DNA from: a virus
Lineage: Duplodnaviria; Caudoviricetes
Direction: 5' to 3' (one strand)
Length of the DNA stretch: 64,000 nt
Virus record (IMG/VR): IMGVR_UViG_2912838376_000002
Location: 32,001 to 96,000 of that record
Shown: positions 3,989 through 64,000 of the stretch, in pieces
How the letters are laid out: the number at the start of each line of letters is the position of its first letter
How positions within the stretch are numbered: position 1 is the first letter of the stretch
The notes under the pieces: model-generated
Told to the model about the DNA's origin: nothing
The model's input: only the letters and a program-made list of their open reading frames with translations
The model's database searches: none
Translations under genes and position numbers: made by a program

Positions 3989-4714
3989 ATGGTAAAATCT
4001 AAAACAAAATTAAAGAAAATCATTCCGGTAACAATGCTATTAGCAACTACGCTAACATCTGCACCACTGTCTTCTTTTGCGGCTGAAAAAAACGATGTGC
4101 AAAACAATTATGTTTCTTCTCAAAAAGCTAATAAAGCATTTCAACCTACAGAAGAATCAATTACTTTTATGTCTAAAGTAGTAAGCAGTGGGGCAATTAA
4201 AGAATTTGATTTTAGTCCAGATTTAAAAACAATGACATACAAACATGATATGGCCACAATGAAAAATACTTACAACTTTAATGATGAAGAGATTGCTAAA
4301 TTAGAGCAAATCGTAACCTTCTATAATGAAAGTGTGAAGAATAATTCTAGTTCAGGTTTAACTAATCCAAATATGAACGCAGTTAAAAAAGGTGGTCCAC
4401 AATATGTAGTAACTGATTACGGTTGGACATGGATTAAAATGACGTTCACGAATGCAGAAACAAAATTACTTTTAGCAGGCGCTGCAGCTGAAGGAGCATA
4501 TGCTATGTATGCCGCATTTGTAGGACTATCAGCAATTACAGCTACACCAGTCGGAGGAGCGATTATCTCTGCTTTAGCTTTGATGGGGCTTCCTAAATTT
4601 GCTTCAATTTGTCAAACTGTTCTAAGGGCGCTTGCTGCAGGAAAAGGAGTTTTCATTGAAATTGGAATGGATGGTGTGATTCCATATATCTCTGCAAGTG
4701 TTGCGAGACATTAA
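3989..4714 (+). CDS. Secreted bacteriocin-like precursor (signal peptide, pro-region, Gly/Ala-rich hydrophobic C-terminal domain)
   Basis: RBS GGAGG before ATG 3989. Sec signal ends SSFA/AE. C-terminal hydrophobic hairpin LLAGAAAEGAYAMYAAFVGLSAITATPVGGAIISALALMG. Confidence 0.55.
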   Translation: MVKSKTKLKKIIPVTMLLATTLTSAPLSSFAAEKNDVQNNYVSSQKANKAFQPTEESITFMSKVVSSGAIKEFDFSPDLKTMTYKHDMATMKNTYNFNDEEIAKLEQIVTFYNESVKNNSSSGLTNPNMNAVKKGGPQYVVTDYGWTWIKMTFTNAETKLLLAGAAAEGAYAMYAAFVGLSAITATPVGGAIISALALMGLPKFASICQTVLRALAAGKGVFIEIGMDGVIPYISASVARH

Positions 4715-4736
4715 GGTGAGTCAGGGAGGTGGTACT

Positions 4737-5087
4737 GTGACAAAGAAAAAGATGGATACGTTTAAAATTGCATGTGGTTTTGGAGTCTGGGGGTACACCT
4801 TTTTTCTAGGTGCTATGCTTACACATGTGTATTATGCTGGTGATCTTCTCCTAGCAACATGTATCTATGGATTTATTGGGAGTGTACTTTTAACTATACA
4901 ATATCATATGTTACGGGATCTCCCATTTACGGAGCGTCTCCTTGAAATAATGATAGTACTAATAATACAGGCATATACTATTTTTTCTGAACATCAAAAT
5001 ATGAATGTGGTAATGCTTGTATTTGTTATTGCTGTTGTGAGTTGTGTATTAATTAATCAAAAGAAAGTAAGAAAAGTATATAGGTAA
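4737..5087 (+). CDS. Small 4-TM membrane protein, putative immunity protein
   Basis: RBS GGGAGGT before GTG 4737. Four hydrophobic segments; lies directly downstream of the bacteriocin-like gene. Confidence 0.55.
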   Translation: MTKKKMDTFKIACGFGVWGYTFFLGAMLTHVYYAGDLLLATCIYGFIGSVLLTIQYHMLRDLPFTERLLEIMIVLIIQAYTIFSEHQNMNVVMLVFVIAVVSCVLINQKKVRKVYR

Positions 5088-53996: not shown

Positions 53997-55523
53997 TTAT
54001 TCTCCTGAATCTTCTATTCGTACAGCTTTTGGGAAACTTAATACAAAAGCCGTTTTACCGTCTGATGTACTTTGAGCAGTTATTTTACCGTTATATATAT
54101 TCATTACTTCTTTAGCGATTGTTAATCCTAATCCAGAACCTTGCTTAGTGTAATCTAAATTCTTACCACGATAATACCTGTCAAAAAGGAAAGGAATTTC
54201 TTTCGGATCAAGAGCAATCCCCTTGTTAATAACCGAAATACAAACCGTATTATCATTAGTTTTAGAAATTACGTTTATCTCAACAGAATTTGAATCAACA
54301 GAGTACTTAACTGCATTGTCGAGGATTGGGTTTATCATTAGGAAGAAATGATTTCGATCTACAAATATCTCGACACCATCTACATCATAACAAATATCAA
54401 AAATAAATTCTGGATATGATTCCGCTTTAAATCTTAACAAGTAATTAATTAAGTCTTTTACTTTATAATAATTTGCACTATCAATATTCGATATTTGTTT
54501 TAATCGAGCCAGTTCCAAGATGGTTGACATAATTGATGTAACCCTAGCGATGTTGTCTTCTATAGCAAGTAATTTCTCATCAACTAAATCTTTATCCTCT
54601 CTACCATAAAACTTAATCATATCTACAGACTGTTTTATTGCAGTAAGGTATGTTTTTACCTCATGTGATACATCTTGCATGGAGTTTAAATTGTTCTGTA
54701 CAAGTTCATTCATTCTATCTAAAACAGCATTAAAACGATTAACAATTTTAGATATTTCTTCTCCATACAAAGGGTCCTCGATTTTTGTTTGATAATTATT
54801 AACTATTACATCGTCAAAACTATTATCAATTGCCTTTTGTAGTGGTCGAAATATAAATTTTAAACCCGCCAATGCTGATATAACTGCAAAGAAAAGAAAC
54901 CAAATAAACATGTACAGAGCACTCTCTAAGCCTGTCATTATTTGCATTTTCAAATTCGTCGTTATATCTCTTTTTATAGTTACCACATCAACATGATTTT
55001 CATGCTTGAAGGAATAAGAGACAATGCCGTATGCCTTGTTTTGTTCGTCAAGATAAAAATTGTACTGAGCATTTTCTGCAGCAGAGTCCATTTTTTTCAT
55101 ATGTGTTTTAATGGAATCAAAAAAAGTTGGAACAAATAAAGTTAAGAGTTGAGACCCAAACATATCAAAAGTATTATTTTGATCTGCAGGAGAGTAATAA
55201 TTATATTCTCCAATTCCAGTTTGACCAATTTTAACTTTTATTGCTTCGCCTGGGTAACTCAAATACCGAAAGAAATTGTCATCAACTTGTTGTTTTCCTC
55301 CACCATCTTGTATCGATTCTAGCTTTTGTTGTATTTTCTCGACCCTAGAAAACATTGCCTCATATTCTCTTTGAGTTGTTAATTGTAATTCGTTGTACAT
55401 AGAAAATAAATTAACTGGTACTGCTGAAATAAAAATAAGTGCGATAGTGAATGAAACAACTTGAACACGTAATTTGTCGCGCTTTACAAAATTTCTGAGG
55501 AATTTCCTAATCCTGCTTCTCAT
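53997..55523 (-). CDS. Membrane sensor histidine kinase 2
   Basis: 2 TM, HAMP-like region, H-box SHEVKT, N-box LDNAVKYS, LFDRYYR, GSGLGL. Confidence 0.9.
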   Translation of the reverse strand: MRSRIRKFLRNFVKRDKLRVQVVSFTIALIFISAVPVNLFSMYNELQLTTQREYEAMFSRVEKIQQKLESIQDGGGKQQVDDNFFRYLSYPGEAIKVKIGQTGIGEYNYYSPADQNNTFDMFGSQLLTLFVPTFFDSIKTHMKKMDSAAENAQYNFYLDEQNKAYGIVSYSFKHENHVDVVTIKRDITTNLKMQIMTGLESALYMFIWFLFFAVISALAGLKFIFRPLQKAIDNSFDDVIVNNYQTKIEDPLYGEEISKIVNRFNAVLDRMNELVQNNLNSMQDVSHEVKTYLTAIKQSVDMIKFYGREDKDLVDEKLLAIEDNIARVTSIMSTILELARLKQISNIDSANYYKVKDLINYLLRFKAESYPEFIFDICYDVDGVEIFVDRNHFFLMINPILDNAVKYSVDSNSVEINVISKTNDNTVCISVINKGIALDPKEIPFLFDRYYRGKNLDYTKQGSGLGLTIAKEVMNIYNGKITAQSTSDGKTAFVLSFPKAVRIEDSGE

Positions 55524-57016
55524 TAGGCATCCCCCTCTCCTGATACAATAGGTATAACTAATGTGAATACAGTTTTTCCATCTGTGTTGCTTTCTACATT
55601 TATTGCACCATTGTATATATCCATCACTTTTTTAGATATGGTTAAACCTAGTCCAGATCCTTTTATTGAGCTATCAAAATTTCTTCCTCTGTAATACCTA
55701 TTAAATAAAAATGGGATTTCTTCTTCTTTAATTTGGAATCCCCAACTAATCACATCCACGTATAAACAGCTTGGACATCCGACATCCTTAATATGAACAA
55801 TAACTTCATTGCTATGCACTGAATACCTAACTGCATTCTCAATAATAGGATTTAAAGCTAATAAAAAATGTTGCTTGTTGATACTTATAATAGGTTCTTC
55901 TACGTCACACTTACTAACAAAATCAAATTCCGGAAAAATCTTTCTCGTATATTCAAGGTATTCATCAATTAATTCTTTTACATTTTCTGTTTCTGTAGAA
56001 GAGAATTGGGCTCCGCGATCTAACTTTGCCAAATCAAGAATTGTAGACATAACTTTTGTAATTTGATCAATGTTATCATCTATCGATTTCAGTTTTTTCT
56101 CCACAGTTTGCTTGTCATCTGTTCCAAAAAATCTTAGTACATCAACAGACTGTTTGATTGATGTTAATTTATTGTTTACCTCATGAGAAACATCCTGCAT
56201 TGATTCTATATTAACTTCAATAATCTTTTGCATTCGCTCTAAAATGTCGTTTATTTTATGTTTAACACCACTAATTTCTTTTCCATATACGCCCGTTATT
56301 TCTATCCTAGTTTTATAATCTGTTTCTTCCAGCTCAGAAAACGTCTTATCAAGAGCATTTCCAAGTAGACGAAATACTAAGCCAAGACCAAAATAAGAAA
56401 ATATACTTGAACAGATAACAATGTATAACAAGCTCACACAAAAAATTTGTTGATATTTCTCTAAAGGCTTCACAACGGTTGGTGTAATATTTCGTTTTAC
56501 CAAAATTGAATCCGTATGATTAAAATGTTTAAAAGAATATTTATAATTCATATAATGAAGGCCACTTGTTTCGTCTTTGTGAACTGATATATTGCCTACT
56601 TTTTTTATATCATCTTTATATCTGCCAGCTAAAAACTCTATTAGAGAAGATGCAATTTTAGCATTTGTATCATTCACTAAATCCTTTTCCTCGTTTTCTT
56701 TACCATAGAAAACACGCTTGGTGCGGTCATCTGTAGATGAAACTGTTATTTCTTCACCTTTAGCTGTAATGCCCTCGAAAAATTCAGGAGAAATCTTACT
56801 GACTCCTCCAACCTCCCATACCTCATTTTCAATTTGAACAGCACGATACTTCATTCGATTGTAAACCTCTTCCCCATCATTTAGAATATCAAAAATGAGG
56901 AACCATAGTAAAATAGGCATTGTAACAAAGGTGACAGCAAGTACTGCTATTGCCGTCAACTTTGTACGTAACCTATTCTCTTTTACTCTTCTAAGAATTA
57001 AAGATTTCAAGGACAT
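55523..57016 (-). CDS. Membrane sensor histidine kinase 1 (paralog)
   Basis: 2 TM, H-box SHEVNN, IENAVRYS, LFNRYYR, GSGLGL. Confidence 0.9.
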   Translation of the reverse strand: MSLKSLILRRVKENRLRTKLTAIAVLAVTFVTMPILLWFLIFDILNDGEEVYNRMKYRAVQIENEVWEVGGVSKISPEFFEGITAKGEEITVSSTDDRTKRVFYGKENEEKDLVNDTNAKIASSLIEFLAGRYKDDIKKVGNISVHKDETSGLHYMNYKYSFKHFNHTDSILVKRNITPTVVKPLEKYQQIFCVSLLYIVICSSIFSYFGLGLVFRLLGNALDKTFSELEETDYKTRIEITGVYGKEISGVKHKINDILERMQKIIEVNIESMQDVSHEVNNKLTSIKQSVDVLRFFGTDDKQTVEKKLKSIDDNIDQITKVMSTILDLAKLDRGAQFSSTETENVKELIDEYLEYTRKIFPEFDFVSKCDVEEPIISINKQHFLLALNPIIENAVRYSVHSNEVIVHIKDVGCPSCLYVDVISWGFQIKEEEIPFLFNRYYRGRNFDSSIKGSGLGLTISKKVMDIYNGAINVESNTDGKTVFTLVIPIVSGEGDA

Positions 57017-57698
57017 AACCTTTACCTCGAACTGTTTTGATTATGTCGATACCGATTGAGTTTCTCAATCTTCGAATATTTACTTCTAAGGTGTTTGTTT
57101 CTTGTAATTCTGAAGGATCATATCCCCAGATATTCTTGTACAATTCTTCCTTAGAAATAATTTTACCTTTGTGAGTAATAAAGTATTGCAGTAGCTCAAA
57201 AAGTTGATTTGTTAAATGAACTTGTTTACCATCAACAGTTACCTTATGCGTTAATAAATTAATTTCAATATTTCCGCATTGTGTAACTCCACCATTTGAA
57301 GATTCCTTGATACTAGTTCGTCGTAAGACTGTTCGAATTCTTGCTAAAAGAACCGTTAAATCATATGGTTTTGTAATATAATCTTCCGCTCCCATATCTA
57401 AACCTTGCATAATGTCTAGTGGTTCGTTTCTTGACGTTAGAAGAAGGTATGGGACGGTTTTGTTTTGATTTACCAACCTTGCAACCTCAAGACCATTTGA
57501 AATACGAGAATTTAATCCGGCTACAGTTTGTTTTAACATGACATCTAATATCATTAAATGATAGTTATTTGACAGTGCAGCATTAACAGCTTCAACACCC
57601 GTAGTAAACCAATCCACATCGTAATTTTCGCTTTTTAAAATCATTTCAAGTGTGCTACCAATTTCATATTCATCTTCCAGTAATAATATTTTATACAA
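56991..57698 (-). CDS. OmpR/PhoB family response regulator
   Basis: LLEDE, ILDVML, GAEDYITKP, winged helix with TVRGKGY. Confidence 0.92.
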   Translation of the reverse strand: MYKILLLEDEYEIGSTLEMILKSENYDVDWFTTGVEAVNAALSNNYHLMILDVMLKQTVAGLNSRISNGLEVARLVNQNKTVPYLLLTSRNEPLDIMQGLDMGAEDYITKPYDLTVLLARIRTVLRRTSIKESSNGGVTQCGNIEINLLTHKVTVDGKQVHLTNQLFELLQYFITHKGKIISKEELYKNIWGYDPSELQETNTLEVNIRRLRNSIGIDIIKTVRGKGYVLEIFNS

Positions 57699-59378: not shown

Positions 59379-61166
59379 TTATGCAGCTTTTGAAACAGGT
59401 TTCTTTTTAATAGAAGCAATCAATCCGTTCATCATACTTCGTTCAGATTGATTTCGTTCAATAACTGCTACACCAAGCTTACGTTTTTCCTCTAATGTAT
59501 CTTGGATTTTTTCATCAATTGTGCCTAGTGTTACTAAACTAATAATATCAACTACATTATGTGTAGAACCAATACGGTGTACACGCCCCGCTCTTTGTTC
59601 AAAGGTAGCTGGATTCCAAGGAGAATCATAGTTGACAAGCGTGTTAGCGAATTGGATATTCAAACCGTAGTTCCCCGCATCTGTTAACACAAAGAATTTG
59701 TACTCAGGATTTGTCCTAAACGTTTCTAGCTGTTCTTGTCGTTGAGCAGAGGACATTGATCCATTTAGTAACGCTACTTTGCCTAAGTTACTCAGCTCTT
59801 GCTCTATAAGGGTTTGCATTTTAGCAAATTGAGTAAAGATGACAATTTTATTTATGCCTGCTTCCATACGTTCTTTACATATATCCACAAGCTCAGTTAG
59901 TTTTGGAGACTTAACGTTTTCCGGAATATATTCTAGATAATGCTTAGACATACCACTCTGCCCCATTAGTAATAAAGCAGGATGATCTGATGAAGCAACC
60001 ATCATATATAAGTACCCTAATACTTGATCTTCCTTCTTGCGTTTCTCTTCAACCCAATTGCCTTCTTGGTCATATTGGCCATCCACTTGCTGGGAAGACA
60101 ACTCTTCTAATAGAGTTAGAAAATCTTCCTGAATCTTGTTGTATAGATTAGCTTGAGCGTTATTCATTTCAACATCTCGACGATGGAAAATCATTGGTGG
60201 TAAATCTTTTGCAACGTCTTTCTTTAATCGACGTAACATGTAAGGAGAAATAATACGACGAAGTTCACCCAATCGCTTGTTTCCAATCGGAACAAAACGA
60301 CGACCAAACTTAGAAGCATAAACAATGTATTTCTTTCTGAATTCGGTAACCTTACCTAATAACCCTGGCTGCACCCATTCAACTAAAGCATATAGTTCTT
60401 CTACATTATTCTGAAGTGGTGTACCAGTACTTGCGAATCGGTATGTAGAAGGTAATGAATTAACAGCTTTATAGGTAATTGAGCCTCTATTTTTTAATCG
60501 ATGCGCTTCATCAGCAATAATTACATCATAATGGAATTCCTTCATCATATCGCTCATGCTACGGACTAATTCATAATTGACGATACCGAATAAGTAGTCA
60601 CCATTAATGAATTTAAGAAAGGCTTTGTTCTTCTCTTTTGTATTTTTCCCATCAATAACAATGTTGGTATGTCCAAGAAACTTTTCAATTTCTGAAGACC
60701 ACTGATACTTCAATGAAGACGGACAAATAACGAGAACCTTTTTTACTTTCCCTTGCTTCCACAACATGTGAGCAGCACCCATTGTTTGCACCGTTTTCCC
60801 TAATCCCATATCATCTCCTATAATACCGCTTTTGACATGAGTTAAGAATGAGATACCTTGCTGCTGAAACTCATAGGGTTGTAATTTAAAATCTGAGAAA
60901 TCATCTAACATAGGGAACTCAGGAAGTAAAACTTCTTGAATCCCCTTAATACTTTCAATAGTTGTGTGCCAAGCGGTTATATCCTCGTAGCGTTCAACAA
61001 AGGCGTCTACATGACGTTTTGGAACCATCCACTTATAATCCTGCTCAATATAATATGCACCCGGTAGTGACCTCATGAAGTCCGTATATTCGCGGAACAT
61101 TTGAGTAGATAGTTTCGTTTCAATACGAATGTCTAATTGGTCACCCTGTAAACGGAGTGAAAACAA
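59379..61166 (-). CDS. SNF2-family helicase
   Basis: DDMGLGKT, DEAH, TGTPLQN, MLRRLK, QRAGRVHRIG. Confidence 0.92.
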   Translation of the reverse strand: MFSLRLQGDQLDIRIETKLSTQMFREYTDFMRSLPGAYYIEQDYKWMVPKRHVDAFVERYEDITAWHTTIESIKGIQEVLLPEFPMLDDFSDFKLQPYEFQQQGISFLTHVKSGIIGDDMGLGKTVQTMGAAHMLWKQGKVKKVLVICPSSLKYQWSSEIEKFLGHTNIVIDGKNTKEKNKAFLKFINGDYLFGIVNYELVRSMSDMMKEFHYDVIIADEAHRLKNRGSITYKAVNSLPSTYRFASTGTPLQNNVEELYALVEWVQPGLLGKVTEFRKKYIVYASKFGRRFVPIGNKRLGELRRIISPYMLRRLKKDVAKDLPPMIFHRRDVEMNNAQANLYNKIQEDFLTLLEELSSQQVDGQYDQEGNWVEEKRKKEDQVLGYLYMMVASSDHPALLLMGQSGMSKHYLEYIPENVKSPKLTELVDICKERMEAGINKIVIFTQFAKMQTLIEQELSNLGKVALLNGSMSSAQRQEQLETFRTNPEYKFFVLTDAGNYGLNIQFANTLVNYDSPWNPATFEQRAGRVHRIGSTHNVVDIISLVTLGTIDEKIQDTLEEKRKLGVAVIERNQSERSMMNGLIASIKKKPVSKAA

Positions 61167-61190
61167 TAGCGGGACCCTCCTATTCGATTG

Positions 61191-61982
61191 TTAGTTAAGA
61201 AACTCTATCTTTATATCTCTTCTTCCGAAGTCATACATTCGGTCTGCATCTGTCATGTAAATATCCACTATGTTGCCTTTGATAGCCCCACCACGGTCTT
61301 CTACTGTGTAGATACCGTTGATAGATGGATAAGATTCACACGTGATTCTTACTTTTGTACCAAATGGAACTGAACGGTCCATAGCGATCATACCCGGTTG
61401 TACTTTTTTACCTGAAGCAGTAAGACCTGTTACTCCTGGTTCATTTATCATATAAGCAGTACCAACACCCATAATTGTTTTAGAAACACCAGCATTATCA
61501 CCAGTATCCTTTGCAGGAGCTGGGGTTGGAGCAGCGCTAGGAGTTGGATTAGAAACCGAAGTAGGTTTCACGTTGTCTGATTTTGGCTTATCAGACTTTA
61601 CTGGCCTGGCAGACTCCTTCGCTTCGCGTACTTGCTTAGCTAGTTCTGCATTCTCTGCTTGAAGTTTTTGATTATCTTCTAGAGACTTTTGCTTTTCTTG
61701 CTCAATAGCTTCCTTGCTATGTTTTAGTTCTTCCAGTTCAACTGAAAGCTGTTCTGTAGCAGATTGAATTTGCTTCTTCTGCTCTTCTAGCGTTTTGTTG
61801 TTTTCTTTAGCGGTTTTCAATTCTTGGACAGTTTGGTTGTGATTTTTTTCTAAGGCTGTTACTTCTTTGTTTAGTTCTTGAATCTCGTGAAATTGAAATC
61901 CTACGCCGCTAGCCACTACGATCGCTGCTGTTGCTTTCAAACAGTTTTGTATTACTTTGCCCTTTGTGATTTTTTGTTTCAT
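61191..61982 (-). CDS. Exported coiled-coil protein with 3D (MltA-like) cell-wall domain
   Basis: TAY...TASG...IAMD...PFGT...EDRGGAIKGNIVDIY; Pro-rich linker. Confidence 0.85.
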   Translation of the reverse strand: MKQKITKGKVIQNCLKATAAIVVASGVGFQFHEIQELNKEVTALEKNHNQTVQELKTAKENNKTLEEQKKQIQSATEQLSVELEELKHSKEAIEQEKQKSLEDNQKLQAENAELAKQVREAKESARPVKSDKPKSDNVKPTSVSNPTPSAAPTPAPAKDTGDNAGVSKTIMGVGTAYMINEPGVTGLTASGKKVQPGMIAMDRSVPFGTKVRITCESYPSINGIYTVEDRGGAIKGNIVDIYMTDADRMYDFGRRDIKIEFLN

Positions 61983-63261: not shown

Positions 63262-63404
63262 TTTAAAACCCTTCCTTGCATATCTTTGCTGACTGATGTT
63301 AATTCTGACATATTCATCAATAATATACCAATTAAAATAGAATTAACGTTGGATGACATTTTATTTATTTACATATAAGTCTGATTATTCACTCATATAT
63401 AAAC

Positions 63405-63445
63405 AAAAAAAGAAAGCTGAAATCATATAGATTAGAGCTTTCTTA
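63405..63445 (-). terminator. Terminator after the peptide gene
   Basis: GAAAGCT...AGCTTTC followed by a T tract on the minus strand. Confidence 0.7.
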
Positions 63446-63450
63446 ATTAA

Positions 63451-63612
63451 TTACTCCCACCACCAAGAGATACCGCTTGTAAGTGCTTCTGCTTCTTGTG
63501 TGTAAGTAGTAGTATCTGTCTTCACAACTGACTCATTAAAATCGGCCGTAAATGTAAGGATCATCGCTAAAGCTGCAGTTGTTGAAAGACATACAATTAT
63601 TTTCTTAAGCAT
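63451..63612 (-). CDS. Secreted 53-aa pro-peptide, candidate signalling peptide (not in the ORF track)
   Basis: MLKKIIVCLSTTAALAMILTFTADFNESVVKTDTTTYTQEAEALTSGISWWWE; RBS GGAGGT; terminator follows. Confidence 0.7.
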   Translation of the reverse strand: MLKKIIVCLSTTAALAMILTFTADFNESVVKTDTTTYTQEAEALTSGISWWWE

Positions 63613-64000
63613 CGGTTTTTACCTCCGTAATTTTTTTGGTATATTTTATTTCTGTCTCTGTTTTTTCTTTTCTTATCGCAAATACTAGAAGGATCATAAA
63701 TAATAGAGAAGAGCTAATAGCTAAAAATGTTAGATTTAAATCAAGACCTCTTACATGCGACATGAAAAATGACGCGGGCAAATAGACTGCTCCAAAAAGA
63801 GAAATTGCTATTACGAAATGCTTTTCTCGTTTAAAACGTATTTTTTCAAAATCAAAGTTGAAAGTCCAATCTTGAGAATAAAGAATGAATGCCATTACAC
63901 CATAGGTAAAACCAGAGATGATATCCATTGCGTAATTTCTCCAAATATGAGCCTTTAACTCAAGAGGGCTGAAGAATCCAAATGAGCAATATATAATTGC
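63605..64000 (-). CDS. Polytopic membrane protein, 5'-truncated by the window edge
   Basis: Frame is open to 64000; several TM segments; stop overlaps the peptide gene. Confidence 0.7.
   Translation of the reverse strand, partial: AIIYCSFGFFSPLELKAHIWRNYAMDIISGFTYGVMAFILYSQDWTFNFDFEKIRFKREKHFVIAISLFGAVYLPASFFMSHVRGLDLNLTFLAISSSLLFMILLVFAIRKEKTETEIKYTKKITEVKTDA

Follow-up and report, generated by a model that had tools for sequence, protein, structure and literature searches.

Peptide signalling in Firmicutes usually follows one of two designs, in which the peptide is either sensed by a membrane kinase (agr, com) or imported to a cytoplasmic receptor (RRNPP, arbitrium). Among the peptides of the RRNPP and arbitrium kind, AimP is phage-borne. 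A different arrangement is represented by the LytTR regulatory systems HdrRM and BrsRM of Streptococcus mutans, where a receiver-less LytTR regulator is combined with a transmembrane protein and no phosphotransfer takes place; in the available text of the source, the regulator gene stands ahead of the membrane gene and no peptide gene is mentioned in the operon (PMC6193735). The agr loci treated in the available text of two papers on Paenibacillus are classical ones (PMC12180512; PMC13700820). In the literature, subscription journals aside, no publication was found that describes the membrane protein family, treats the kinase-less cassette as one unit or reports the peptides analysed in this study.

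The window (the whole stretch of 64,000 nucleotides analysed, bases 32001-96000 of a virus record of 244,829 bp in full) carries the end of a gene for a membrane protein, hereafter X, followed by a gene for a 53-aa pro-peptide that ends in SWWWE. The pair resembles the kinase-less agr cassettes of Paenibacillaceae and of phages Abouo and Harrison in that a member of the X family heads the operon, a small peptide gene lies downstream and temperate phages carry the module; the relatives of the pair with a WWW peptide also have the same receiver-less LytTR protein. It differs from them in that this element is without AgrB and a LytTR gene, and in its WWW peptide, which combines a Sec leader with a linker of 20-30 aa, has no PxEL tail and gives no match to the AgrD model. 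Comparison with staphylococcal agrBDCA revealed for the family with LytTR a ribosomal pro-peptide, a putative polytopic membrane sensor and a LytTR-type DNA-binding output, and Ser opens the aromatic core of five residues, as it does in lactone autoinducers. Unlike agrBDCA, however, the locus has no AgrC kinase, receiver domain or AgrB, X is not detectably related to AgrC, and the WWW peptide is predicted to be linear, with nothing beyond the core to energise cyclisation. HdrRM and BrsRM are similar in that X relatives are co-encoded with a receiver-less LytTR protein, and a comparable mechanism may be supposed for X; X lacks the Pfam domains of those membrane proteins, known inhibitors of LytTR systems, and the co-encoding is found in the relatives, not in this element. 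Phr, PapR, NprX and AimP share the Sec leader, the variable linker and an active part at the extreme C-terminus, but they act on cytoplasmic TPR receptors once Opp has imported them, whereas the partner here is a membrane protein of another family. Pfam analysis of X and its neighbours found no TPR receptor gene adjoining the peptide gene and no ComQ-like or polyprenyl-synthase-type match.

The peptide gene and membrane protein X

Proteins of the locus are 92-95% identical to those of two IMG/VR contigs, of the 235-kb plasmid pBTHD789-2 and of seven sister plasmids of Bacillus thuringiensis, and contigs of about 235-245 kb from the B. cereus group carry X homologues with 75-100% identity. According to the available text of two papers, pBTHD789-2 is the sequence behind pBtic235, an inducible jumbo plasmid-prophage (PMC6199540; PMC9700832). 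By this protein identity, the window belongs to a temperate phage-plasmid of the B. cereus group that resembles pBtic235.

The pro-peptide gene was assigned to 63451-63612 of the window (minus strand) by its open reading frame and translation and by orthologues in related loci. Its product has an MLKK n-region, a hydrophobic core, a variable linker and the conserved C-terminus TSGISWWWE. The ATG lies inside the end of the X gene with an 8-nt overlap (X stop ends at 63605; ORF start at 63612), and a Shine-Dalgarno site, GGAGGT, is located at 63621-63626 (minus strand), 8 nt before the ATG and within the last codons of X. The ORF, its ribosome-binding site and the overlap with the stop of a membrane protein had all been read from the window sequence alone beforehand, and all are confirmed. 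The GGAGGT site is kept in pBtic235 and in KBAB4 (DNA alignment), and the Priestia megaterium phage described below has GAGGAGGT at the same position. An orthologous peptide ORF follows X in each of the three B. cereus-group loci read. The three B. cereus-group protein variants on record all have the TSGISWWWE end; MLKKIIVCLST and YTQxAEAxTSGISWWWE are common to all and the middle differs. The ORF, the Shine-Dalgarno site and the terminator are intact in all five full-length variants seen, and peptide-wide pN/pS is ~1. The Shine-Dalgarno site, the 8-nt overlap and the conservation of SWWW between elements whose X proteins are only 54% identical indicate, on sequence grounds, that the 53-aa ORF is a real gene. 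On pBTHD789-2 the orthologue carries the annotation 'hypothetical protein'. Pfam, NCBIfam and PHROGs gave nothing meaningful for the peptide; the best NCBIfam match, PhrK (E = 1.2, 12 leader residues), is not meaningful. The pBtic235 locus is present in four RNA-seq runs of one study as contigs of 9-63 kb, which show neither transcript ends nor level and are possibly DNA.

An intrinsic-terminator-like hairpin with a U-run is predicted by folding at 63401-63444 (minus strand), beginning 7 nt past the peptide stop codon; positions 63444-63436 pair with 63418-63410 in a 9-bp stem, a second stem of 4 bp lies inside it, and the U-run follows. The closing terminator proposed earlier thus holds on its fold energy (-19.4 kcal/mol, z = -2.4, with 3 of 200 shuffles folding as well), though a simple consensus terminator scanner found none at this hairpin. 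The hairpin is conserved in pBtic235 and largely so in KBAB4 (DNA alignment).

Plasmid pBWB401 of B. mycoides KBAB4 carries a 26-aa version of the peptide (locus 4707-4787) that results from an in-frame 81-nt deletion and has lost the hydrophobic core. This version still has the Shine-Dalgarno site, the start, MLKK, SISWWWE and the hairpin, and lies within a degraded phage region on the 417-kb plasmid. A core-less SISWWWE copy is at odds with a Sec-exported signal unless it is a relic, and it is treated here as a relic.

Only the C-terminal 131 codons of X are in the window (63605-64000, minus strand); the full gene, at 95605-96327 of the record, ends at window coordinate 64327. Retrieval and modelling of the full gene, which the sequence-only reading had named as a check, gave a protein of 240 aa from a GTG start and a seven-helix membrane protein of no named family. 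An alternative TTG start three codons in (about 237 aa) has a better ribosome site, AGGGGTGA, and is the likelier start because of this site and of its agreement with the MNSANL start of the P. megaterium homologue and of one further homologue. The AlphaFold2 model (pLDDT 87.4, pTM 0.85) has seven long helices. No family match for X was found in Pfam, NCBIfam or PHROGs, and Pfam gave only scattered single matches on 47 X-family members. Structural searches with the model returned nothing at E<=0.001 from the PDB with Foldseek and only helical-hairpin matches (Z<8) among 48,161 chains with VIA-align; the ESM Atlas returned only unnamed Bacillota clusters. A search of longer proteins found no fused forms of X, which is weak evidence. 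AgrC-type polytopic kinases of the same genomes had negative bit scores against X in four of four cases, and hhalign of X against four AgrC-like N-termini gave 0.3%. With no AgrC likeness and no inhibitor Pfam domain, a receptor role for X is argued from context only.

A phmmer search with X alone recovered 53 relatives, about 205-240 aa long, of which 20 reach E<=1e-10, and tblastn with X recovered two Paenibacillus loci. No match was obtained in species-representative genomes with X and the peptide as queries, in GenBank phages by tblastn of X and query P0019, or in viral contigs with the queries P0012, P0014 and P0017. X scores 208 bits (E = 1.3e-62; record 95605-96363) against the 47-member family profile, X itself being a row of that alignment. 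Across the 47 sequences, conservation of at least 90% was found for G99, Q108, G155 and E221 only, and there is no invariant Cys, Ser, His, Asp or other nucleophile. With the topology taken from charge counts and no dedicated predictor, conservation peaks in the predicted cytoplasmic loops (2.53-2.57 bits) and is lowest in the predicted outer loops (0.80-1.74 bits). Purifying selection acts on X in this element (pN/pS 0.22-0.39 against orthologues; 0.22-0.27 within the B. cereus group). The cytoplasmic motif FxFxFEKxRFKxE is intact in seven of eight aligned homologues, and in five of seven element sequences when loci are also read, the pBtic235-type loci having NFNFERIRFKRE; X in this element retains the RKE tail. 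The conserved motif, the RKE tail and purifying selection together suggest that a partner of X probably still exists.

Kinase-less agr cassettes and the WWW variant

Relatives of X in two Paenibacillus plasmids and two Cohnella genomes are followed by AgrB, an AgrD-like peptide and a protein of 124-134 aa that consists of a LytTR domain only, the LytTR and AgrB Pfam matches being above cut-off. No kinase and no receiver domain is present in this X-AgrB-AgrD-LytTR-only cassette. All four X-linked small peptides tested match the AgrD model TIGR04223 above cut-off (31-47 bits; cut-off 19 bits). Analysis of 42 X-linked AgrD cores, the five residues before the tail, revealed serine (35) or cysteine (7) at position 1; position 2 is mostly W/Y/F (W in 15), position 3 is hydrophobic, position 4 is aromatic in 36 and position 5 is V/I/L in 32.

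Among the best 34 X loci, which include two duplicates of earlier loci, AgrB lies beside X in 32 and a LytTR-only protein in 30; in 20 lower-scoring loci the numbers are 16 and 18, respectively. Overall, 48 of the 54 sampled X loci are agr peptide-signal operons. The exceptions are X-LytTR, X-AgrD-LytTR or X alone. Locus L048 has X, an AgrD-like peptide and LytTR without AgrB, and in L040 and L057 X is directly followed by the LytTR-only gene; these three are further reduced forms of the cassette.

The four-gene cassette is also present beside the integrase in the temperate phages Abouo (Brevibacillus, gp44-47) and Harrison (Paenibacillus, 38-41), where the X profile scores 55.0 and 68.7 bits, respectively, on the phage proteins. 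Abouo gp47 (2469-2837 of the locus) and Harrison 41 (2448-2804) are annotated as 'peptidase' and match the receiver-less LytTR profile with 29.2 and 27.1 bits, which suggests that they are probably mis-named DNA-binding regulators. The parts of the cassette carry the GenBank labels 'membrane protein', 'AgrB', 'cyclic lactone autoinducer peptide' and 'peptidase'. With matches in 190 of 301 sampled Paenibacillaceae genomes (E<=1e-5) and in several temperate phages, the X family suggests that peptide signalling has a third, widespread design that works without phosphotransfer.

Conservation of the peptide ORF on related elements, a check named in the sequence-only reading, was found in four lineages. 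In all four, X is followed by a peptide with a Sec-type leader and a variable linker, ending in [S/T]WWWx and then a stop codon. The ends are GISWWWE in this element and pBtic235, SLSWWWH in the P. megaterium phage, GITWWWW in Paenibacillus sp. MMO-58 and SITWWWA in a metagenome contig of 3.9 kb; the latter two were found through the non-phage proteins most closely related to X. X of the P. megaterium phage is 54% identical, and the 51-aa ORF behind it shows an equal 8-nt overlap and has the leader end …VAYA/EA. The MMO-58 peptide reads …VSA/AAP…GITWWWW and that of the metagenome contig …IPA/SQ…SITWWWA, so that three of the four leaders end in canonical AYA, VSA or IPA cleavage motifs, as read by eye. 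A conserved signal peptide with a variable C-terminus had been anticipated, and the reverse was seen: SWWW is invariant, lineages differ only in the residue after it, and it is the linker that varies. Outside the leader, S46, S49, W50, W51 and W52 are the invariant residues in an alignment of five peptides, with identity elsewhere down to 22%.

The gene after the peptide matches the LytTR-only profile in three of the four lineages (P. megaterium phage 20.9 bits, MMO-58 65.5 bits, metagenome contig 29.8 bits). The P. megaterium candidate is the weakest of the three; hhalign gave 79%, and in a Foldseek search the 11 best matches listed (ranks 1-12) were all LytTR domains, of a B. cereus protein, ComE and AgrA, with prob 1.00 and a TM to target of 0.63-0.66 for stand-alone LytTR domain chains, although the alignment behind the model held true LytTR-only rows and the fold may be biased. 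These profile matches describe the variant as X, Sec peptide and LytTR-only protein, in which AgrB and AgrD are replaced.

In a by-eye alignment, SWWWx fits positions 1-4 of the AgrD ring consensus and stops at position 5, where the AgrB-recognition tail would start; the residues found at position 5 (E/H/W/A) are atypical of AgrD rings. The peptide ORF stops one residue past WWW, leaving no charged PxEL-type recognition tail. Without a tail there would be no acyl-enzyme step, and the peptide is therefore presumed to be linear. None of the peptides of the three other lineages matches TIGR04223, and the peptide of this element has no match at E<=10; for this reason the WWW peptides were not filed as AgrD. 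The WWW variant is the simplest form of the system, with two or three genes and no processing enzyme, which makes it the easiest to rebuild and test with synthetic peptides.

Possible roles of the X-peptide pair

In our assessment the chances are about even that the X-peptide pair is an AgrB-independent linear peptide signal sensed by X. We infer steps of export, processing, binding and sequestration as follows. The pro-peptide would be exported by the Sec pathway and its leader removed, and extracellular trimming, which is possible, would free a short linear peptide with the C-terminal end S-W-W-W-E. X would serve as a seven-helix, non-enzymatic membrane sensor whose variable outer face reads the SWWWE end, and its conserved inner loops would relay the signal to a partner of the LytTR type, as in the LytTR regulatory systems described in the available text of PMC6193735. 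In the four-gene cassettes, X would hold or release the LytTR regulator through its conserved cytoplasmic loops, like the membrane inhibitors of LytTR systems. In the WWW variant, AgrB-dependent synthesis of a cyclic peptide would have been swapped for a Sec-exported peptide that ends at the AgrB cut point.

The sequence-only reading had proposed an undescribed receptor or processing protein paired with a peptide. This is a fair reading insofar as the pair is coupled and conserved, X belongs to no named family and its relatives lie in peptide quorum-sensing operons; the choice between receptor and processing protein is taken up below.

Analysis of the full 244,829-bp record found no AgrB and no LytTR-only gene with our own profiles (best E = 0.05 among 1917 stop-to-stop frames), nothing for Pfam LytTR at E<=1 and nothing for the P. 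megaterium LytTR-type protein at E<=10. The proposed output is thus missing exactly where the finding lies. Since there is no regulator gene, a signalling pair would have to act through a partner from the host or one not yet recognised, or else provide the signal and the sensor for cross-talk among related elements. On a 245-kb phage-plasmid of the B. cereus group, the pair could bear on the mutual sensing of elements or on dormancy versus induction.

A broader proposal is offered tentatively, as possible and no more. The WWW variant may represent a third design of Gram-positive peptide signal, in which a Sec-exported linear [S/T]WWWx pentapeptide, needing neither AgrB nor import, would be read at the surface by a kinase-less seven-helix receptor, from a new family, that sequesters a bare LytTR protein. 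Such a signal would be the own channel of Bacillus/Priestia jumbo temperate phage-plasmids, arbitrium-like in function and agr-like in parts, with the last residue as a 'dialect'; the pBtic235-type pair, uncoupled from a regulator, may eavesdrop on or jam related elements.

X could instead be a factor for maturation or export (a leader-peptidase or exporter analogue), with sensing elsewhere, for example by HisKA kinases or a host receptor. The two-kinase set placed earlier at about 6 kb is indeed present, as one operon that encodes HisKA/HATPase_c kinases of 508 and 497 aa together with a 235-aa response regulator of the OmpR type at 53997-57698 (minus strand), about 5.8 kb from the pair. Both the retention of X and the peptide without a LytTR regulator in an element that encodes two membrane-type kinases with an OmpR-type regulator, and the position of X, always immediately upstream of and translationally coupled to the peptide-making genes, would suit such a factor. 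The suggestion that these kinases read the peptide nevertheless found no support; HisKA and OmpR-type proteins are unlike agr/LytTR signalling, and distance is the sole tie. We consider a maturation role unlikely, as X offers no invariant Cys, Ser, His or Asp for catalysis, its most conserved parts are predicted to be cytoplasmic, the ordinary Sec leaders of the WWW peptides make a dedicated exporter or peptidase unnecessary while X is still kept in all four lineages, and the four-gene cassettes hold no other candidate sensor for the receiver-less regulator. It is quite unlikely that a three-gene module has been decaying in this phage lineage and that X and the peptide stopped signalling once the LytTR gene was lost: the low pN/pS of X within the B. 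cereus group (0.22-0.27), the cytoplasmic motif intact in seven of eight homologues and the peptide ORF, Shine-Dalgarno site and terminator intact in five of five full-length variants weigh against decay, to be set against a LytTR-only gene that occurs in three of the four WWW lineages and is absent here, and against the 81-nt deletion in the KBAB4 copy.

Two further alternatives concern the peptide itself. We regard as very improbable a Trp-rich, membrane-active antimicrobial or bacteriocin-like peptide with X as its immunity protein and LytTR as regulator of the locus. A Sec leader with an aromatic C-terminus would fit, the MMO-58 peptide has a weak lactococcin-972 match (E = 0.11, far below cut-off), and LytTR regulators often control bacteriocin loci according to the available text of PMC6193735; conservation is limited, however, to five C-terminal residues while the rest of the 'mature' part is free to vary, and in 48 of the 54 sampled loci X relatives lie in agr peptide-signal operons, not beside bacteriocin genes. 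The least credible alternative is a Trp-codon leader that would control the terminator through ribosome stalling, as in a trp-type attenuator. Three consecutive TGG codons do stand 3-11 nt before the stop, with the terminator hairpin 7 nt beyond, but the fold reveals no alternative antiterminator pairing and the Sec-type leader, for which an attenuator has no need, is kept in four of four lineages. This alternative was rejected because a terminator after WWW is missing from three of the four lineages; the next gene starts within about 11-13 nt of the WWW codons in MMO-58, the metagenome contig and the P. megaterium phage.

Genomic setting of the cassette

The X-peptide pair has as neighbours genes for a 250-aa protein (no Pfam match), a 63-aa zinc-ribbon-like protein and a 197-aa protein (no Pfam match). 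The cassette occupies the same site in the P. megaterium phage (239-kb contig), between a 250/260-aa gene and the 63-aa zinc-ribbon gene, and Bacillus phage Edson has the 250-aa gene and lacks X. The shared site and the absence of X from Edson mark the cassette as an accessory insert. The cassette predates the split of the B. cereus-group and P. megaterium phage lineages, and the B. cereus branch either lost the regulator gene or never acquired it.

A direct repeat of about 70 nt flanks the cassette on both sides. The downstream copy lies at 63302-63370 of the window (minus strand) and is 75% identical to the upstream copy, which lies beyond the window at 96370-96438 of the record. The repeat motif reads ATGTCAT-N2-AACGTT ... 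TTAATTGGTATATTA and is promoter-like, with the extended -10-like element TGGTATATT. The two core motifs of the repeat are confined to these two sites in the 244,829-bp record, apart from one weaker match with two mismatches. The same repeat pair, of 72 nt, is present in pBTHD789-2, and a weaker flanking repeat surrounds the cassette in the P. megaterium phage. Insertion of the cassette may have duplicated a promoter and so produced the repeat. A palindrome, ATGACAAAGATGTCAT, is found just upstream of the promoter-like repeat ahead of X (record about 96419-96444, minus strand) and could be an operator. A search of 62 regions upstream of X for LytTR-type direct repeats (9-mers, period 19-23, at most one mismatch) gave no consistent motif.

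Between the cassette and the kinase operon, a SNF2-type helicase-sized ORF (595 aa) and a 3D-domain coiled-coil protein (263 aa) are encoded at 59379-61982 (minus strand). On KBAB4 plasmid pBWB401, a response regulator likewise lies near the X-peptide locus. The homologue of the SNF2-type ORF on pBTHD789-2 is annotated as a DEAD/DEAH box helicase, and the helicase-sized ORF and the 3D-domain protein are syntenic in the P. megaterium phage.
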